Source: a virus. Taken from it: DNA of 47,742 nt. Of the stretch, positions 4,800-10,636 are shown piece by piece; position 1 is the stretch's first letter, and every line of letters starts with the position of its first letter. Position numbers and translations under genes: made by a program. The notes below the pieces were generated by a model, which worked only from the letters and a program-made list of their open reading frames with translations, was not told the DNA's origin and ran no database searches. The stretch is from the IMG/VR virus record IMGVR_UViG_3300029717_000016, positions 1 through 47,742 of that record; one strand, written 5' to 3'.

Positions 4800-5108
4800 A
4801 TGAAAGAAATAAAACTCCTAATGGAGCACATAGAGGATGAGCTGGAGGACGCGCACACCTACGCGGAGCTGGCCGTGGAATATAAGCACGACGATCCGGA
4901 GCTGGCAGACCTGTTTTACAGGCTGAGCGGGGAGGAAATGAACCACATGAACGCCCTGCACAAGGCCGTTGTTTCCCACATCGAGGAATACCGCAAGCAA
5001 AAGGGCGAGCCGCCTGCGGCCATGATGGCCGTCTATGAGTACCTGCACAAGCGGAATATTGAACGGGCGGAGAACGTCGGAGTGGTGCAGGGGCTGTATA
5101 AGCGGTAA
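4800..5108 (+). CDS. Small helical E/H-rich protein (ferritin-like look)
   Basis: 102 aa. EDELEDAHTYAELA...EEMNHMNALH. Family not recognised with certainty. Confidence 0.6.
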   Translation: MKEIKLLMEHIEDELEDAHTYAELAVEYKHDDPELADLFYRLSGEEMNHMNALHKAVVSHIEEYRKQKGEPPAAMMAVYEYLHKRNIERAENVGVVQGLYKR

Positions 5109-5118
5109 GCGTGGCAAA

Positions 5119-5146
5119 TTCCGTTGCCAATCCGTTGCCAATTTGC
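5119..5146 (+). promoter_or_regulatory. Candidate integrase arm-type sites (TCCGTTGCCAA x2); third copy at 5370-5380
   Basis: ttccgttgccaa tccgttgccaatttgc on one side of the tRNA-like core, and aattccgttgccaatttgc (5367-5385) on the other side. Confidence 0.5.
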
Positions 5147-5250
5147 ACCCTAAAAACGTACCGCACGCGGGAAAATATTAAAATCTGCGGTAATATTTTC
5201 CCGCAGAATAGTTCGGAGAACGTGGGAATATAGCTGATAAAGCAATAAAA

Positions 5251-5280
5251 AAGCCCTAGAATAAGGTTCTAGGGCTTTTT
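5251..5280. terminator. Bidirectional hairpin terminator
   Basis: aagccctagaa ... ttctagggctt flanked by an A-run and a T-run. Confidence 0.7.
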
Positions 5281-5285
5281 CTGTT

Positions 5286-5312
5286 TGGTGGAGCCGAGGG
5301 GAATCGAACCCC
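5286..5312 (-). other. attP core: 3' fragment of a tRNA gene (T-arm, acceptor 3' strand and CCA)
   Basis: Reverse complement reads ggggttcgattcccctcggctccacca. No matching 5' acceptor, D or anticodon arm upstream, so it is only a fragment. Adjacent to the integrase. Confidence 0.75.
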
Positions 5313-5341
5313 ATAAATAAATTTCAAAAACTGTTGCGGCA

Positions 5342-6442
5342 CTAGCAACTTTTATTTTTCATTTCCAATTCCGTTGCCAATTTGCGCTTTTTCATCGCTT
5401 CGGTGGTGAAGTAGTCGCAGAAGTCGCTGGAGCGTTTGGCAATATCTTTCTGGGCGAGGTGCGTGTAGATATTGTGCATGGTAGACAAGTCACTCCACCC
5501 TCCGATTTCGGCGGCGATCATTTCCGGAATTTGCAAGTGGTAGGCAAGAGATGCAAAGCTGTGGCGCAGCCCATGCAGATCAACCACGGTGATTCCAGCG
5601 GCGGCGCAGACTTTGCCTAAATTATTGTAGATGGTTTCTGCGCTTGCCTTTACCACGTTTCCGGTCTTCTGCTCCTGCGCTTTCAGCGCCTCTAGAAGCG
5701 GCGGAATGATAGGCACAGAGCGGCGGGACTTCGCCGTTTTGTTTTGTGGCTTCTGCACAAGCCCAGCCGCCCCCATGACGATTGCGCCGCGAACGTGCAT
5801 CACCTTGTTTTCCAAATCTACGTTTGCCCAGTCCATGGCGATCATTTCCGAGCGGCGCAGGGAGGAAAGGCACATCAGATACGGGATTTCAAATCGGTGG
5901 CCTTTTATAGCTTCCACAAACTTATCTATCTCGTCCGGCGTGAGGTATGCCCGTTCGTTGTGTTCCGGGGGATACAGCATCACCTCTGGGCGCGGAGCAC
6001 CGGCGGCGACGATGCAGGCGGAAAAGAACATCCACCCATTTTTGATATACTTCGGGGATTTCCCGGCCTTGTGTTCCTGCCTGATAGCGGCCTGCCATTG
6101 GTCATTGGAGACTGTGAAAATGTTCCGCTTCATCATGCCTAGCAGCATATTCCGCTTGAACTTCTCGTACCCTGCAATGGTGGATGGGGAAAGGAATCCC
6201 TCTTTTGATGCAATGTAGCTTTTGACGGCTTCTTCCAGCGTGATGTCTTTCCCGTCCTTCTTCTCGCGGACTTCCACAAGGCCGTTTTTCAAGGCGAGAT
6301 ATTCGGCCACGCATTCATCATATGTATCTTTCGTAATCGATACGCGGCGATTCTCTATCAATACACGTGTGTGCCACGCCCCAGAGGGGAGCTGCTTAAT
6401 TTTTGGGAGCCTGATTTCCGGCTCATTCTTTCTTTTTGCCAT
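5342..6442 (-). CDS. int: Tyrosine integrase (phage integrase family)
   Basis: LRRSEMIAMDW (R), HGLRHSFAS (HxxR), GWSDLSTMHNIYTH (Tyr). Start moved to M21 (ATG 6442, RBS aggggga) because the longer ORF runs through a terminator. Confidence 0.92.
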   Translation of the reverse strand: MAKRKNEPEIRLPKIKQLPSGAWHTRVLIENRRVSITKDTYDECVAEYLALKNGLVEVREKKDGKDITLEEAVKSYIASKEGFLSPSTIAGYEKFKRNMLLGMMKRNIFTVSNDQWQAAIRQEHKAGKSPKYIKNGWMFFSACIVAAGAPRPEVMLYPPEHNERAYLTPDEIDKFVEAIKGHRFEIPYLMCLSSLRRSEMIAMDWANVDLENKVMHVRGAIVMGAAGLVQKPQNKTAKSRRSVPIIPPLLEALKAQEQKTGNVVKASAETIYNNLGKVCAAAGITVVDLHGLRHSFASLAYHLQIPEMIAAEIGGWSDLSTMHNIYTHLAQKDIAKRSSDFCDYFTTEAMKKRKLATELEMKNKSC

Positions 6443-6469
6443 AAGGAATCCCCCTTTACATGCGGTTAG

Positions 6470-6500
6470 AAAAAATGGCAGACCGCCGAAACGGTCTGCC
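6470..6500 (-). terminator. Rho-independent terminator between toxin gene and integrase
   Basis: Minus strand: ggcagaccg tttcgg cggtctgcc followed by atttttt. Confidence 0.75.
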
Positions 6501-6573
6501 ACTGTTTTTGAGAACTAGGTGGGGCGACGCTCCCACATCTCCTAACAAGGGCGACGGCTGCCCGTTCCGTCTT

Positions 6574-7053
6574 CTAGTCCTTTCTGCTTTTGAGCAACGC
6601 GGCCTTGGTTTCGATAATATTTAACGGACTATGTAGAACCCCACGTTCAACCATGTTCAAGTAGGCAAGCGCTTTTACACGGATGTTTTTCTTTATATTT
6701 TTGTTTTCCAAAACATAAGGCACATTGTTGATATTGTATGGGCGTAGTACATGTTCCGGGAGGACGGGGAACATATCGCAGATAATAAAAGCCCTGTCTT
6801 TTCCGTATATCGGCGCTATGAGGTAATGCACGCAGTTTCCGGAGCCGTGCCGCCTCTCACTTTCATATATCAGCCGCTTGTATTTATCTACGTTGGTACT
6901 CATTGGAACCATCCATAGGACACCGGATTTGTCCGCCATAGCGTAGTAGTGGGGGCGGCTCTCCTGCTTATTCTTCATATAGCGGTTGTTCCCGTATTTT
7001 TCAAAGAAAGCATCACGGATTATGTATATTCCGGAGTCCTGTATCTCTGTCAT
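6574..7053 (-). CDS. Type III TA endoribonuclease-like toxin (ToxN/AbiQ/CptN-like)
   Basis: 159 aa. IYIIRDAFFEKY...ESRPHYYAMADKSGVLWMVPMST...AFIICDMFPVLPE has the layout of ToxN/AbiQ-type toxins. Preceded by repeat RNA plus terminator. Confidence 0.65.
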   Translation of the reverse strand: MTEIQDSGIYIIRDAFFEKYGNNRYMKNKQESRPHYYAMADKSGVLWMVPMSTNVDKYKRLIYESERRHGSGNCVHYLIAPIYGKDRAFIICDMFPVLPEHVLRPYNINNVPYVLENKNIKKNIRVKALAYLNMVERGVLHSPLNIIETKAALLKSRKD

Positions 7054-7065
7054 TTGTTATCCCCC

Positions 7066-7088
7066 AAAAAAGAATGCCGAACCGGCAT
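7066..7088 (-). terminator. Attenuator-type terminator between repeat RNA and toxin gene
   Basis: Minus strand: atgccg gtt cggcat tctttttt, then RBS gggggataacaaATG. Confidence 0.7.
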
Positions 7089-7099
7089 GGCGGCCAGTC

Positions 7100-7193
7100 C
7101 GGCATTTTCAGGCCGGAGTTTTGTATCCCGCTCCCGGCAAGCGGCAGTCTCACAACAAGCCGAAGTCTTATATCCCGCTCTCGGCAGGCGGCA
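7100..7193 (-). ncRNA. Candidate type III antitoxin RNA: 2 x 47-nt tandem repeats
   Basis: Units 7193-7147 and 7146-7100 share tgccgcYtgccgRgagcgggataYaaRactYcggcYtg. No ORF. Confidence 0.6.
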
Positions 7194-7250
7194 AATTAGG
7201 GCGGACGATGAACGTCGTCTATATAGCGTAGGTGGTTATCCTACGTCTAT

Positions 7251-7279
7251 ATTGTACCCCGAGAAATGGAAAATAGCAA
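7251..7279 (-). promoter_or_regulatory. Candidate promoter for repeat RNA/toxin-1
   Basis: Minus strand TTGCTA-N17-TACAAT. Confidence 0.5.
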
Positions 7280-7333
7280 TAGACAGATTGACCAAAAACG
7301 GAAAAATATTTCCGACAATCGTAAAAATTTATC

Positions 7334-7774
7334 TTACCTCTGAATCCATCCGGTTCCCGGGTGCATGATATCGAAGATGAGCCAGCCTACTAGGAAGATT
7401 ACCAGCACCGCAATGGAAATGCCCATAATCAGAATCACCCGCCGATTCTGGCGGTTGAGAATGCTGTAGTGCGTTTGCAGCTGCATGGTGTGCCGCCTGT
7501 AGTCCTCGCTCTGGCGGATGATCGTTGCCTGAAGATATTCCACATATTCCTCCATGGACTGGCCGGGGGCAGGTAGCACAGGGTGTTCCTCCGGGGTGTA
7601 CTGCACGGCGGCCTCAATGCTCTGCACAAGCCTTGCCGTCGGCTCCGTCGCACCATTCAGGGCGCGGCAGATCGTGGCCTTGGATACGCCGCAGGTTTCT
7701 GCCAACTCCTGCTGGGACATGCCCCGCTCCTTCCGCAGGGCTTCCAATTCTGATAAATGCTCGGAAATATTCAT
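7334..7774 (-). CDS. Membrane-anchored XRE-family HTH regulator
   Basis: 146 aa from ATG 7774 (GGAGGC RBS). HTH MSQQELAETCGVSKATICRALNG. C-terminal TM VILIMGISIAVLVIFLVGWLIF. Confidence 0.8.
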   Translation of the reverse strand: MNISEHLSELEALRKERGMSQQELAETCGVSKATICRALNGATEPTARLVQSIEAAVQYTPEEHPVLPAPGQSMEEYVEYLQATIIRQSEDYRRHTMQLQTHYSILNRQNRRVILIMGISIAVLVIFLVGWLIFDIMHPGTGWIQR

Positions 7775-7966
7775 AAAACCGCCTCCAAAAACGGAATGTT
7801 TCACATATGGAACGATTGTTGCGAAAATGGAACGGGAATTTCACATCTGGGGCTTTACGAAACGCCTGTGTGTGGTGTATGGTGGTATTGCAACCGGCAA
7901 GGGACACACGTCGTTACCGGCGGCAAGCCCCGTCACCTTGTGGCACGGGTGGCGGGGCGTATAGCC

Positions 7967-8389
7967 CTAACGAATACGTAATTCGCGGTGAAAGTATTGA
8001 AGGGAACTGCATGAACGGATCATGTCATAATGCTTGTTATCCGGATACTTCACGGCATTCCTGTACGCAATCAGGAATTTCCGCATTCCGTTTGTGATCA
8101 GCGCATCTTTCCCTTTCAATATATTGAATTCTTCCTGCTCGATGGTCGGTGTGCTTGAATTGATAAACCGCCATTCGGAGATGACGACGGCTTTTGAATA
8201 GTCCAGCCCAGCTTCGCCAACGGTAAAGAATGCCCACTTGTGGGGAATATGGTGGCGAAAAGGAATTGCGAATGTAACGCCGTCAACTTTAACCGCCAAA
8301 CAGACATACGGCCTTGTCTGCTTTATCAGAATCTCTTCACAGCCGTGATACCTTTCGTAGAAGACCGGGGACAGGGTGATCAGCTTCAT
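7967..8389 (-). CDS. Type III TA toxin-like protein (TenpN/AbiQ-like)
   Basis: 140 aa. FYERYHGCEEILIKQTRPYVCLAVKVDGVTFAIPFRHHIPH, GLDYSKAVVI, C-terminal SLQYFHREL. Preceded by repeat RNA plus terminator. Confidence 0.65.
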   Translation of the reverse strand: MKLITLSPVFYERYHGCEEILIKQTRPYVCLAVKVDGVTFAIPFRHHIPHKWAFFTVGEAGLDYSKAVVISEWRFINSSTPTIEQEEFNILKGKDALITNGMRKFLIAYRNAVKYPDNKHYDMIRSCSSLQYFHRELRIR

Positions 8390-8401
8390 CTATCTCTCTC
8401 C

Positions 8402-8435
8402 TAAAAAAGACGCCCCCTGTCGAAACAGAGGGCGT
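8402..8435 (-). terminator. Attenuator-type terminator between repeat RNA and toxin-2
   Basis: Minus strand: acgccctctg tttcga cagggggcgt cttttttag, then ggagagagataATG. Confidence 0.75.
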
Positions 8436-8442
8436 GAAAATC

Positions 8443-8542
8443 AATCGAGCTTTCTTTTGATTATGCTGCTCGCGCTCTACGAGCAAATCATCAATTGAGC
8501 TTTCTTTTTCCCGCAGAAGCCTCGCTCTAAGGCTTCATCATC
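8443..8542 (-). ncRNA. Candidate type III antitoxin RNA: 2 x 50-nt tandem repeats with covarying hairpin
   Basis: Units 8542-8493 and 8492-8443. Shared flanks and 7-nt loop tagagcg. Stems GAAGCCT/AGGCTTC versus TTGCTCG/CGAGCAG differ in a compensatory way. Confidence 0.7.
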
Positions 8543-8562
8543 GTGGAATTATCCACACCCTC

Positions 8563-8591
8563 ATTATAAAGCCCGAATATTCAGTTGTCAA
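8563..8591 (-). promoter_or_regulatory. Consensus sigma-70-type promoter for repeat RNA/toxin-2
   Basis: Minus strand TTGACA-N17-TATAAT. Confidence 0.7.
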
Positions 8592-8790
8592 CCACTTTTA
8601 AAAATTTTTTTGAATCAGAATTCAATTGTCATCTTCATTCAAAATCATACCACGTTCGACATATAATTTCAACGAAAAGAAAAATTTTTGTGCATTTTTC
8701 TAATTAGTCCGGTTTATTGGACACATGACGTGCTATTATACGCTACGTAATCAAACAAACGTTTATAAATACATAACGGAGGGACAAAAC

Positions 8791-8940
8791 ATGCAAGCGA
8801 AAGAAGAAATTAAGAAGCCTATCGAAGAGATGACGGAGCAGGAATTAGACAGGGAGATCGGAGAACGCATCCAGCTGCTGACAGATGAAGAAAAGGTAAA
8901 GCTTGTGCGCCTCCTTCTCGAACTGGCAGCATCCGAATGA
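8791..8940 (+). CDS. Small acidic hypothetical protein
   Basis: 49 aa from ATG 8791 (GGAGGG RBS). Longer track ORF trimmed. Confidence 0.5.
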   Translation: MQAKEEIKKPIEEMTEQELDREIGERIQLLTDEEKVKLVRLLLELAASE

Positions 8941-8959
8941 GCGTGTAACCGTTCAATGG

Positions 8960-9343
8960 TTATCTCCCCTCTGTAAGCCCTCTCAGCTGGGCAAGAATTA
9001 ACCGCTTGTGTTCTTCGGATAAACTCTTGACCAGCGCCATGATTTGACTATCCAATTCGGACAGCTCGCCGGAATCGGCGGGCTGTTCTTTTTCGTCGCG
9101 CTCTCTACGAACGTCGTATCCCATAAGCCACGTTTCGCTTACATTCAGTGCCAATCCGAGGATGGTCAACTTTTCCTGCCTCGGCTCAACCTTCCCGCTT
9201 ACGTACTGGCTGAGATCGTTTTTTGCCAACTTAACACCGTATTTCTCGCAAAAAGGTTTGGCAGCTTCAAGAATATCGACTTGTCGAAGCGACCTTTCAT
9301 TCATGATCTGCTTTAATCTTTCACTTGTGCTACTATTTTTCAT
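8960..9343 (-). CDS. cI-like XRE-family repressor
   Basis: 127 aa with N-terminal HTH. Divergent from the cro-like gene across an operator-rich region. Confidence 0.8.
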   Translation of the reverse strand: MKNSSTSERLKQIMNERSLRQVDILEAAKPFCEKYGVKLAKNDLSQYVSGKVEPRQEKLTILGLALNVSETWLMGYDVRRERDEKEQPADSGELSELDSQIMALVKSLSEEHKRLILAQLRGLTEGR

Positions 9344-9365
9344 TTGCTACACCTCCGGTAACTGA

Positions 9366-9394
9366 ATAATAGCACACATTGAACTAAAGCTCAA
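9366..9394 (-). promoter_or_regulatory. Candidate repressor promoter
   Basis: Minus strand TTGAGC-N17-TATTAT. The -35 overlaps a TTGAAC half-site. Confidence 0.5.
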
Positions 9395-9410
9395 GAGCCA
9401 AATAAAAATA

Positions 9411-9427
9411 ATTCAATTTTTTTGAAC
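9411..9427. promoter_or_regulatory. Operator-like palindrome ATTCAA-N5-TTGAAC
   Basis: 17-bp inverted repeat between the divergent promoters. Confidence 0.55.
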
Positions 9428-9434
9428 AAACTAG

Positions 9435-9463
9435 TTGACAAACGGGAAATTATGGTGTATACT
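9435..9463 (+). promoter_or_regulatory. Early rightward promoter
   Basis: TTGACA-N17-TATACT upstream of the cro-like gene. Confidence 0.7.
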
Positions 9464-9470
9464 TAAGCCA

Positions 9471-9487
9471 GTTCAAGAGAATTGAAC
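9471..9487. promoter_or_regulatory. Operator palindrome GTTCAA-N5-TTGAAC
   Basis: Perfect 17-bp inverted repeat just downstream of the -10. Confidence 0.65.
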
Positions 9488-9505
9488 CGAAAGTGAGGTG
9501 AGAAT

Positions 9506-9715
9506 ATGCCGTACAATTATTCCAAACTGCTAGGCCGCATTGTTGAAAAGGTTGGTACGCAGAGCAGGTTTGCCGAAAGAATGGAAATGTCCGAACGCAC
9601 CATTTCCTTAAAACTTAATGGAAAAGTTGGCTGGAAGCAGACTGAGATAGCAAAAGCCTGTAACGTTCTCGATATTCGGGACGTTGAGATTCCCAATTAT
9701 TTTTTTGCTTTATAA
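9506..9715 (+). CDS. Cro-like/DUF739-like HTH regulator
   Basis: 69 aa. QSRFAERMEMSERTISLKLNGK. GAGGTGAG RBS. Confidence 0.75.
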   Translation: MPYNYSKLLGRIVEKVGTQSRFAERMEMSERTISLKLNGKVGWKQTEIAKACNVLDIRDVEIPNYFFAL

Positions 9716-9732
9716 GTTCAAAGATATTGAAC
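9716..9732. promoter_or_regulatory. Third operator palindrome GTTCAA-N5-TTGAAC
   Basis: Perfect copy of the same motif immediately after the cro-like stop codon. Confidence 0.6.
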
Positions 9733-9770
9733 AATAGGCCGCACAAACAAGCCTAGAAGGGGGTGAAAAA

Positions 9771-9983
9771 ATGAAAAATTATCTATTCCCCAGAGGGTGT
9801 GATTCAGCACGTGTAATTCCCGTCATTGAAACACGGTCTGCGCGCGGGTCTGGTGCAGTGGATCAGCCGACACGGGTTGTCGTGGAATACTGGTCTTTGG
9901 CCGGGGAGAAGCTGGCAGAGCGCGATACCTATTTGCAGGGGATGGCTTCGGCTTCCTCGAAAGCAAGTTCCGATTCTACGTAA
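9771..9983 (+). CDS. Hypothetical small protein
   Basis: 70 aa with strong RBS (aagggggtgaaaaaATG). Its 3' end overlaps the convergent gene by 55 nt, so the end is uncertain. Confidence 0.45.
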   Translation: MKNYLFPRGCDSARVIPVIETRSARGSGAVDQPTRVVVEYWSLAGEKLAERDTYLQGMASASSKASSDST

Positions 9984-10636
9984 TTCAGCATGGCCTTTAT
10001 GAAGCGTTTCATATCTTCAATGCCGAGATCGTCGTGCTTTCTTACATAGTGCGTTTCGTCGTTTCCAATCCATGCCGACCGCTCAGCGAGAACCTTGAGC
10101 CTTTGGTCTTCCAGCTTTTTGATGCACGAACCGAGCGGCTCCGCGAGTATCTTATCGGTATTATCTGGATTCTTATGCCGCAAATAGTCCTTTACCAAAA
10201 ACTCCAGGGCTTTTCGATAGCCAACCCCGCAGATGCGATACAACCGTTGAGATTCGGCAATTTCCGCCTGCGCATAGGTCTCAACGAAGTCCGGTGAAAG
10301 CTGCTGCACGTCGCCTGAAAATTTGTTTATGTTAGGCGTGTAAGGAACAGAGTACGAGGCAGAATCGAAATCTGCAAAGCCAGGAACAGGGCGACTTGTA
10401 CTTTCCTGAAAAGCGCTTAAAAAGACCTGATTGCACCTTTTGCACAGGGAAAGAAGGTACAGCGTGCATTTCCCATCAGAAGGGCTGTCGGGCTGAACGT
10501 AGTAAGCGCATAATGCCTTCGGCTCAATCGCGAAATGGCATGACGGGCATTCGGTAACCTCCTGATACGTGCAGCGCAATAAATACGATTCGCCCGGATA
10601 CTCCGCGCTAGATGCTTTTATACTCTTTTTGCCCAT
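9929..10636 (-). CDS. Zinc-ribbon plus DUF4145-like domain protein
   Basis: 235 aa from ATG 10636 (AAAGAGGCGG RBS). CPSCHF...CKRCNQ. C-terminal YRKALEFLVKDYL...IGNDETHY...FIKAMLNYV pattern. Confidence 0.65.
   Translation of the reverse strand: MGKKSIKASSAEYPGESYLLRCTYQEVTECPSCHFAIEPKALCAYYVQPDSPSDGKCTLYLLSLCKRCNQVFLSAFQESTSRPVPGFADFDSASYSVPYTPNINKFSGDVQQLSPDFVETYAQAEIAESQRLYRICGVGYRKALEFLVKDYLRHKNPDNTDKILAEPLGSCIKKLEDQRLKVLAERSAWIGNDETHYVRKHDDLGIEDMKRFIKAMLNYVESELAFEEAEAIPCK

Follow-up and report, generated by a model that had tools for sequence, protein, structure and literature searches.

Two different type III toxin–antitoxin modules as probable autonomous cargo of a conserved regulator–integrase backbone in the lysogeny arm of a gut Clostridia phage

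Results and Discussion

The lysogeny arm of the virus record IMGVR_UViG_3300029717_000016 from IMG/VR (47,742 nucleotides, nt; the whole stretch that was analysed is called the window below) carries two type III toxin–antitoxin (TA) modules, cptIN and tenpIN, which belong to different families and lie on the two sides of a gene for a membrane-anchored XRE regulator. We consider it quite probable that this arm of the prophage consists of a conserved regulator–integrase backbone with two cargo slots, each of which holds an autonomous type III module. The backbone would comprise, in this order, a hairpin-plus-box element, operator-like repeats, the gene of the membrane-anchored XRE regulator and the integrase gene. 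Slot 1 would be situated just upstream of the hairpin, being occupied here by tenpIN, and slot 2 between the regulator gene and the integrase gene, being occupied here by cptIN together with a skipping-rope RNA. The entire window is phage DNA that includes two tRNA genes and large structural open reading frames (ORFs); to judge from sequence comparison, the phage is temperate and hosted by uncultured gut Clostridia. The region found no match among GenBank phages by megablast, and all comparisons reported here are with metagenomic sequences (IMG/VR and uncultured metagenome-assembled genomes, MAGs).

The toxin–antitoxin modules cptIN and tenpIN

Neither of the two toxins was matched by Pfam or PADLOC, and both were resolved by NCBIfam. 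Toxin 1 scored 109.8 bits against the CptIN equivalog NF047359 (cut-off 90), and its residues 7–144 matched the solved structure of CptN from Eubacterium rectale (4RMO_A, E 1.5e-23). By these matches the toxin 1 gene is a member of the CptN family, with a predicted RNA antitoxin. The latter, cptI, is present as two copies with 84% identity and a spacing of 47 nt (7105–7198), which falls inside the published range for cptI of 40–48 nt repeats in 1.9–3.4 copies (Blower et al., 2012, PMC3401426, Table 2). One compensatory change from A-U to G-C distinguishes the stems of the two copies (GCCGAG/CUUCGGC and GCCGGG/CUCCGGC), as read from the sequence, and the repeats can be drawn by eye as an H-type pseudoknot with an A-rich loop.

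Toxin 2 scored 124.2 bits against the TenpIN equivalog NF047358 (cut-off 90), and a sequence search against solved structures gave no match for it. Each of the tenpI repeats is composed of GAUGAU, a hairpin with the loop UAGAGCG and then AAAAGAAAGCUC. The two repeats, spaced by 50 nt, are not identical, and their differing stems (GAAGCCU/AGGCUUC and UUGCUCG/CGAGCAG) both pair. The length of 50 nt and the two copies agree with the published tenpI range of 39–57 nt and 1.9–3.0 copies (PMC3401426, Table 2). The order of promoter, two repeats, terminator and toxin gene is the same in cptIN and tenpIN. Because of this canonical type III layout and of the compensatory stem changes between repeat copies, both modules appear complete and self-contained.

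The 3′ repeat of tenpI proved to be a match of the Rfam 6A RNA (RF02925; 8439–8490, 60.7 bits at a gathering score of 41.2), and the upstream repeat, which has a different stem, gave no 6A score. A 6A match was located 50–100 nt upstream of tenpN not only in the window, but also in each of the eight TenpN loci for which upstream DNA was available (L125, L126, L153 and L155–L159), the toxins of which range from 99 to 51% identity. Since the 6A RNA thus occurs above the gathering threshold before tenpN in every TenpN locus examined, it is, as far as covariance-model matches and gene order can tell, the 3′-proximal repeat of the TenpI antitoxin. The 6A and skipping-rope motifs were reportedly described by Weinberg and co-workers in 2017, 6A as an orphan motif, which would now gain an annotation as a TenpI antitoxin. 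Rfam is not mentioned in the tenpIN survey of 2025 (Nadig et al., PMC12283969).

An orphan 6A/tenpI copy was also encountered (L015:4620–4810), situated just after an Abi_2 gene and equipped with a promoter of its own (TTGACA-17-TATAAT) and with a terminator, but lacking tenpN. It could be an antitoxin-only locus, i.e., a decoy against TenpN, or a remnant of a deletion.

Comparative genomics of the regulator loci

A scan of IMG/VR with the regulator yielded 24 loci. In 22 of these, the sequence corresponding to 7962..6400 of the window is shared at 94–99.6% nucleotide identity, the shared block being made up of the upstream element, the regulator gene, cptI, cptN and the skipping-rope RNA, with homology that extends about 170 nt into int. 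The integrases beside this block are 54–100% identical, and the cI/cro genes of the 22 loci are unrelated. None of the 24 loci contains tenpN. The slot in which tenpIN resides here holds in sister phages either nothing (27 bp in L002) or other cargo, namely genes for Abi_2, a SAP-domain protein, a Zn-ribbon membrane protein, lipoproteins, a Phage_min_cap2-like protein and, in L025, a SNIPE-like nuclease with DUF4041 and T5orf172 domains.

Single-sequence locus searches with cptN and tenpN retrieved only near-identical copies, and divergent homologs were traced by protein searches and contig look-ups. The tenpIN module recurs with 99–100% identity in two loci (L055, L113), where it precedes a different regulator subtype of 228 amino acids (aa) and cptN is lacking. 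More distant tenpN homologs (77, 63 and 51% identity) are flanked by cI on one side and by the integrase gene on the other; a regulator of the present type accompanies tenpN only at the 77% locus L153, in the form of a 184-aa protein with a helix-turn-helix (HTH) domain and two transmembrane spans (HTH-2TM), and it was found in none of the loci L155–L159.

Conversely, homologs of the regulator with 74, 70, 62, 60 and 54% identity are followed by a recombinase gene within about 10 nt and are devoid of cptN. In L022, L025 and L029 this gene encodes a tyrosine integrase, and in L027 and L028 a large serine recombinase. An integrase gene likewise comes directly after the HTH-TM homolog of L026. 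Adjacency of the regulator and integrase genes is the rule across the 68 loci with enough downstream DNA, the exceptions being 15 loci in which the two are separated by an 831-nt gap, that is, by the cptIN block. Finally, cptN homologs with 62–69% identity were found elsewhere in three contexts: in divergent orientation beside an HTH-2TM–integrase pair (L149 and L150, 69% identity), among lysis genes, and beside a hexapeptide transferase gene.

The first-pass annotation of the window had offered two readings of this composite island, either two independent modules stacked in one prophage or a coupling of both modules by the membrane-tethered regulator to an envelope or infection signal, and had proposed to look for co-occurrence of the three units in related phages. 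No such co-occurrence was found: tenpIN, cptIN and the regulator each occur without the others. The units being independent in their occurrence, three-way coupling is therefore not supported, and stacking of independent modules is borne out both by their separate occurrence and by the promoter and terminator that each of them possesses.

Operator-like repeats and the hairpin-plus-box element

Two direct repeats upstream of the regulator gene had been noticed previously, GGAATGTTTCACATATGG at 7793–7810 and GGAATTTCACATCTGG at 7835–7850, and both are exact. They had been taken for an operator pair; in fact they are the outer units of an array of three units with a 20-nt period (7794–7853), with 4 nt between its end and the ribosome-binding site. 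An operator function itself is plausible, as the repeat arrays preceding the ribosome-binding site change with the HTH subtype of the regulator. The 20-nt array is retained in L025 and L029, whose regulators have 70 and 54% protein identity, and diverged homologs display arrays with a 20–21-nt period or inverted repeats at the same position. The 146-aa regulator type has direct units with a 20-nt period upstream, the 228-aa type an inverted repeat of 14 nt, and the regulator gene of L153 four GGAAGAATC units of 20–21 nt. That the HTH protein regulates its own gene is best supported by this co-variation; most likely it binds the 20-nt repeats before that gene and autoregulates the regulator–integrase unit.

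Exact copies of the 12-mer CCAKATGTGAAA are present in the 47.7 kb only within the two repeats mentioned (7799–7810 and 7839–7850), and no copy with up to two mismatches was detected near the cptI or tenpI promoter. Copies with up to two mismatches elsewhere in the window (14482, 30604 and 40893) bring the total to chance level.

Directly upstream there lies the hairpin-plus-box element of about 95 nt (7868–7963), which was found at every regulator locus of this clade. It contains a hairpin (7927–7958) with a GC-rich stem of 11 bp, the loop of which is GUGCCAC here and invariantly GUGCCA(C/U) across the loci. A box at 7890–7925 comes next (TGCCGCCGG..GTCCCTTGCCGGTTGC; its invariant form across the loci is TGCCGCCGG-N(4-16)-GTCCCYTGCCGGTTGC), and a CATA(C/G) box and a GTAAA box are located further downstream in the element. 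The stem is supported by compensatory changes in 5 of its 11 pairs, with 90.9% of the cells paired as compared with 30–51% in slid controls, and its score was reached by none of 500 shuffles. The pattern of the element occurs in 92 IMG/VR contigs (L030–L121), it is single-copy in the window, and among species-representative genomes it was met in only three, all of them uncultured gut Clostridia MAGs.

As to the nature of the element, the hairpin starts 5–12 nt past the stop codon of the preceding cargo gene, whatever that gene may be. Such a location would fit a 3′-end or insulator element, although the tail of the hairpin has only 2–3 U. Several other readings were considered and dropped. No Rfam family matches the hairpin-plus-box, no sigma-70 promoter was found on that strand, and sigma-54, sporulation-sigma and attC-like sites fitted poorly when compared by eye. 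An apparent −10 box on the 5′ side of the hairpin is formed by the stop codons of the preceding cargo genes.

The membrane-anchored XRE regulator

The HTH domain of the regulator belongs to HTH_3 (PF01381, E 6.3e-12). Hydropathy analysis indicates a single hydrophobic span within residues 109–141, preceded by NRQNRR, and the AlphaFold model (predicted local distance difference test score, pLDDT, 74) consists of a four-helix HTH, a linker and a single continuous helix at residues 74–137. Foldseek matched the protein to XRE repressors of the Cro/CI type only (SinR, HipB, C-proteins and P22 c2). The predicted C-terminal tail on the outer side of the membrane is 11 aa long, and D135, P139 and W143 in it are invariant among 28 homologs. 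No description of a membrane-anchored XRE protein beside a phage integrase was found in the literature. A family of such proteins, paired with integrases and with a covarying upstream hairpin, may be added to the annotation of gut-Clostridia phages.

Longer relatives of the regulator, of 184–243 aa (L040, L055, L078, L149:1336-1926 and L153:2829-3383), possess the HTH, a coiled coil and two membrane spans. They share the motif LDxxxPxxGLI(R/Q) after the first span and occupy the same position directly before the integrase gene.

Skipping-rope RNA and the integrase-proximal slot

The skipping-rope RNA of the window (6511–6581; Rfam RF02924, 58.8 bits at a gathering score of 36.7) begins at the stop codon of cptN and is followed by a terminator (6503..6474). 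A pattern scan revealed about 22 distinct other skipping-rope RNAs (L160–L207). In 13 of these about 22 copies the same-strand gene that ends just 5′ of the RNA encodes a PBECR3 nuclease (PF18812, 86.7 bits), in L197 a MazEF-like pair is located upstream, and in at least nine copies an integrase gene follows. The usual PBECR3 neighbour is not present upstream of the RNA in the window, cptN being there instead. Since PBECR3 precedes most skipping-rope RNAs, cptIN apparently occupies a slot that is usually held by another RNase. The skipping-rope RNA seems tied to genes of RNase toxins next to int, an association that may serve the annotation of this RNA. A general partnership of skipping-rope RNA with cptN was considered as well and rejected, the diverged cptN loci being without it.

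In a related prophage lysogeny module (L028:2384-2590) a FuFi-1 RNA (RF02986, 86.8 bits) was detected upstream of a cI-like gene. FuFi-1 is said to be another motif of the 2017 set of Weinberg and co-workers, with no function assigned.

Possible function and alternative interpretations

In either module, a constitutive promoter would drive the synthesis of two tandem RNA repeats, and the terminator would let only a fraction of the transcripts reach the toxin gene, the repeat RNA holding the endoribonuclease toxin inactive. When transcription stops, upon infection or loss of the element, the RNA would decay and the toxin would be set free, which could result in abortive infection, in addiction to the prophage, or in both. 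The comparisons above establish the families of the toxins, the anatomy of the modules and the independent occurrence of the units. Toxin activation, a defence role and DNA binding by the regulator are what we infer rather than observe, the defence role by analogy with TenpIN of Photorhabdus luminescens, which aborts infection by coliphages (PMC3401426), and because sister phages carry defence genes in this slot.

Prophage addiction is a live alternative because CptIN has so far displayed only TA and plasmid-maintenance behaviour. The architecture would remain as proposed, but the modules would stabilise the prophage through post-segregational killing when it is lost or excised, and would not serve abortive infection against other phages. 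We regard this version as somewhat unlikely, though it is the strongest competitor. It is consistent with the plasmid maintenance supported by CptIN (PMC4627078), with the failure of CptIN to protect against any of six coliphages (PMC3401426) and with the location of cptIN next to the integrase gene. The anti-phage activity of P. luminescens TenpIN speaks for a defence role, as do the known and candidate defence genes (Abi_2, SNIPE-like) in the same slot of sister phages; besides, killing on loss and abortive infection are not mutually exclusive.

Several observations weigh against the proposal of two autonomous modules lodged as cargo beside the backbone. Protection from phages has never been shown for CptIN (PMC3401426). 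A search for a sigma-70-like promoter of the regulator gene found none, and the hairpin after tenpN has a tail of only 2–3 U. Transcripts that start at the strong tenpI promoter may therefore run on into the regulator–integrase unit. Lastly, the regulator and cptIN are together in all 22 close relatives, though these represent one near-identical block.

The constancy of the backbone also admits a more far-reaching reading, according to which it is an undescribed lysogeny control unit that ties integrase expression to a membrane cue, with slot 2 preferring endoribonuclease toxins. The unit would take in the covarying hairpin with its invariant box, the subtype-specific operator arrays, the tail-anchored XRE regulator with the invariant D..P...W tail, and the tightly adjoining tyrosine or serine integrase. 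We think this unlikely. Were it true, the preference of slot 2 for PBECR3, MazF and CptN together with a skipping-rope RNA would hint that the RNA is an RNase-linked regulator or antitoxin next to int.

Still less probable, in our opinion, is a functional cassette of the regulator, cptIN and the skipping-rope RNA, to which tenpIN alone would have been added independently. The fixed spacing of regulator and cptIN in 22 of 22 close relatives, across differing integrases and immunity genes, is what such a cassette would predict, and L149 and L150 again show a 69%-identical cptN beside an HTH-2TM–integrase pair, although in divergent orientation. However, the 22 loci constitute one block of 94–99.6% identity and hence one evolutionary event, all regulator homologs with less than 75% identity are without cptN and adjoin an integrase, and the other cptN homologs have no such neighbour. 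CptIN, moreover, forms a complete system by itself in E. rectale (PMC4627078).

The coupled island, in which the membrane-tethered regulator would sense an envelope or infection signal and control both type III modules, draws on the adjacency and common orientation of the three units, on the strongly conserved 11-aa extracytoplasmic tail, which could sense something, and on the lack of a proper U-tract terminator between tenpN and the regulator gene, yet we find it very hard to believe. None of the 24 regulator loci has tenpN, and both tenpIN and cptIN are met elsewhere unaccompanied by each other or by this regulator. Either module is served by a promoter and a terminator of its own, the operator motif is missing at both TA promoters, and the conserved neighbour of the regulator is the integrase. 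A membrane-signal-coupled pair of type III systems would be new; it is not supported.

Comparison with known systems

The cptIN module resembles the CptIN systems of E. rectale (4RMO) and Coprococcus catus in its homologous toxin and in its layout, in which a tandem array of approximately two units, each about 45 nt long, is followed by a terminator and then by the toxin gene. It differs in being carried on a phage contig, in the lysogeny arm between a regulator gene and an integrase gene, and in being followed by a skipping-rope RNA; the census of Blower et al. (2012, PMC3401426) lists 33 chromosomal cptIN loci and none in phages. Similarly, the tenpIN module shares with the TenpIN systems of P. 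luminescens and of viruses (viral tenpN, PMC12283969) a pair of differing repeats, each about 50 nt long and with an A-rich tract, which come before a terminator and a toxin gene. Carriage of TenpIN by prophages has already been reported (Nadig et al., 2025, PMC12283969), and the peculiarity of the present copy is that it belongs to a subfamily from gut Clostridia in which the antitoxin repeat corresponds to the Rfam 6A motif. The window would thus be a clear example of a single prophage in which exchangeable cargo from two distinct type III families is stacked, with cptIN on a phage contig.

The proposed cargo slots are reminiscent of the hot spots for moron and defence genes. Such hot spots between integrase and repressor are familiar from the Sie and Ltp genes of lactococcal and streptococcal phages, from P2 and P4, and from prophage-mediated defence in mycobacteriophages. 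The likeness consists in variable cargo with its own promoter and terminator, which is swapped at fixed slots among phages that are syntenic in other respects, and in defence genes that can be stacked; the difference is that there are two slots here, bounded by the covarying hairpin-plus-box and the skipping-rope RNA.

Membrane-bound one-component regulators, such as BcrR of Enterococcus, ToxR and CadC, likewise have a cytoplasmic DNA-binding domain tethered to the membrane and repeats before the regulated gene. In contrast, the regulator described here is tail-anchored, exposes only 11 residues outside, has no sensor domain and is encoded beside a phage integrase. Its homology is limited to the XRE HTH.

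Locus layout and minor observations

The region 5000–10500 of the window was read on both strands, and its minus-strand genes, from the integrase gene through the cI-like repressor gene, are co-oriented (Table 1). The integrase, toxin 1, HTH-TM and toxin 2 genes, which the first-pass annotation had described as co-oriented beside the cI-like repressor gene, were all recovered in that arrangement.

Table 1. Features of the lysogeny arm in window coordinates
Feature	Position	Strand	Evidence or remark
Tyrosine integrase	5342-6442	-	PF00589
Skipping-rope terminator	6474-6503	-	terminator prediction
Skipping-rope RNA	6511-6581	-	Rfam RF02924; overlaps cptN stop codon
Toxin 1, cptN, 159 aa	6574-7053	-	NCBIfam NF047359
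cptI-cptN terminator-like hairpin	7073-7106	-	14-bp stem, then CTTTTTT
cptI antitoxin RNA, two 47-nt repeats	7105-7198	-	repeat family D1
cptIN promoter, TTGCTA-17-TACAAT	7251-7279	-	9/12 consensus match
XRE regulator (HTH-TM) gene, tail-anchored, 146 aa	7334-7774	-	HTH_3, hydropathy and AlphaFold
GGAGG ribosome-binding site of the HTH-TM gene	7782-7789	-	
Operator-like array, three tandem 20-nt units	7794-7853	-	direct repeats
Hairpin-plus-box element	7868-7963	-	covariation and conserved boxes
Toxin 2, tenpN, 140 aa	7967-8389	-	NCBIfam NF047358; also phrog_8049
tenpI-tenpN terminator-like hairpin	8410-8435	-	11-bp stem, then CTTTTTT
tenpI antitoxin RNA, two 50-nt repeats	8443-8542	-	direct repeats D3 and D6
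tenpIN promoter, TTGACA-17-TATAAT	8563-8591	-	12/12 consensus match
cI-like repressor	8960-9343	-	
cro-like DUF739 gene	9506-9715	+	faces the cI-like repressor

Just 3′ of the integrase gene, a fragment at 5286–5340 of the minus strand resembles the 3′ end of a tRNA or transfer-messenger RNA (tmRNA; weak tmRNA match of 16.5 bits) and is probably the core of the phage attachment site, attP. At the upstream edge of slot 1, the segment 8641–8812 is kept at 74–94% identity in sister phages and bears two promoter-like sites that diverge, the minus-strand one reading TTGAAA-17-TATGAT (8672..8644) and the plus-strand one TTCAAA-18-TATAAT (8638..8667). An ORF of 49 aa is present near the same edge on the plus strand (8791–8940).

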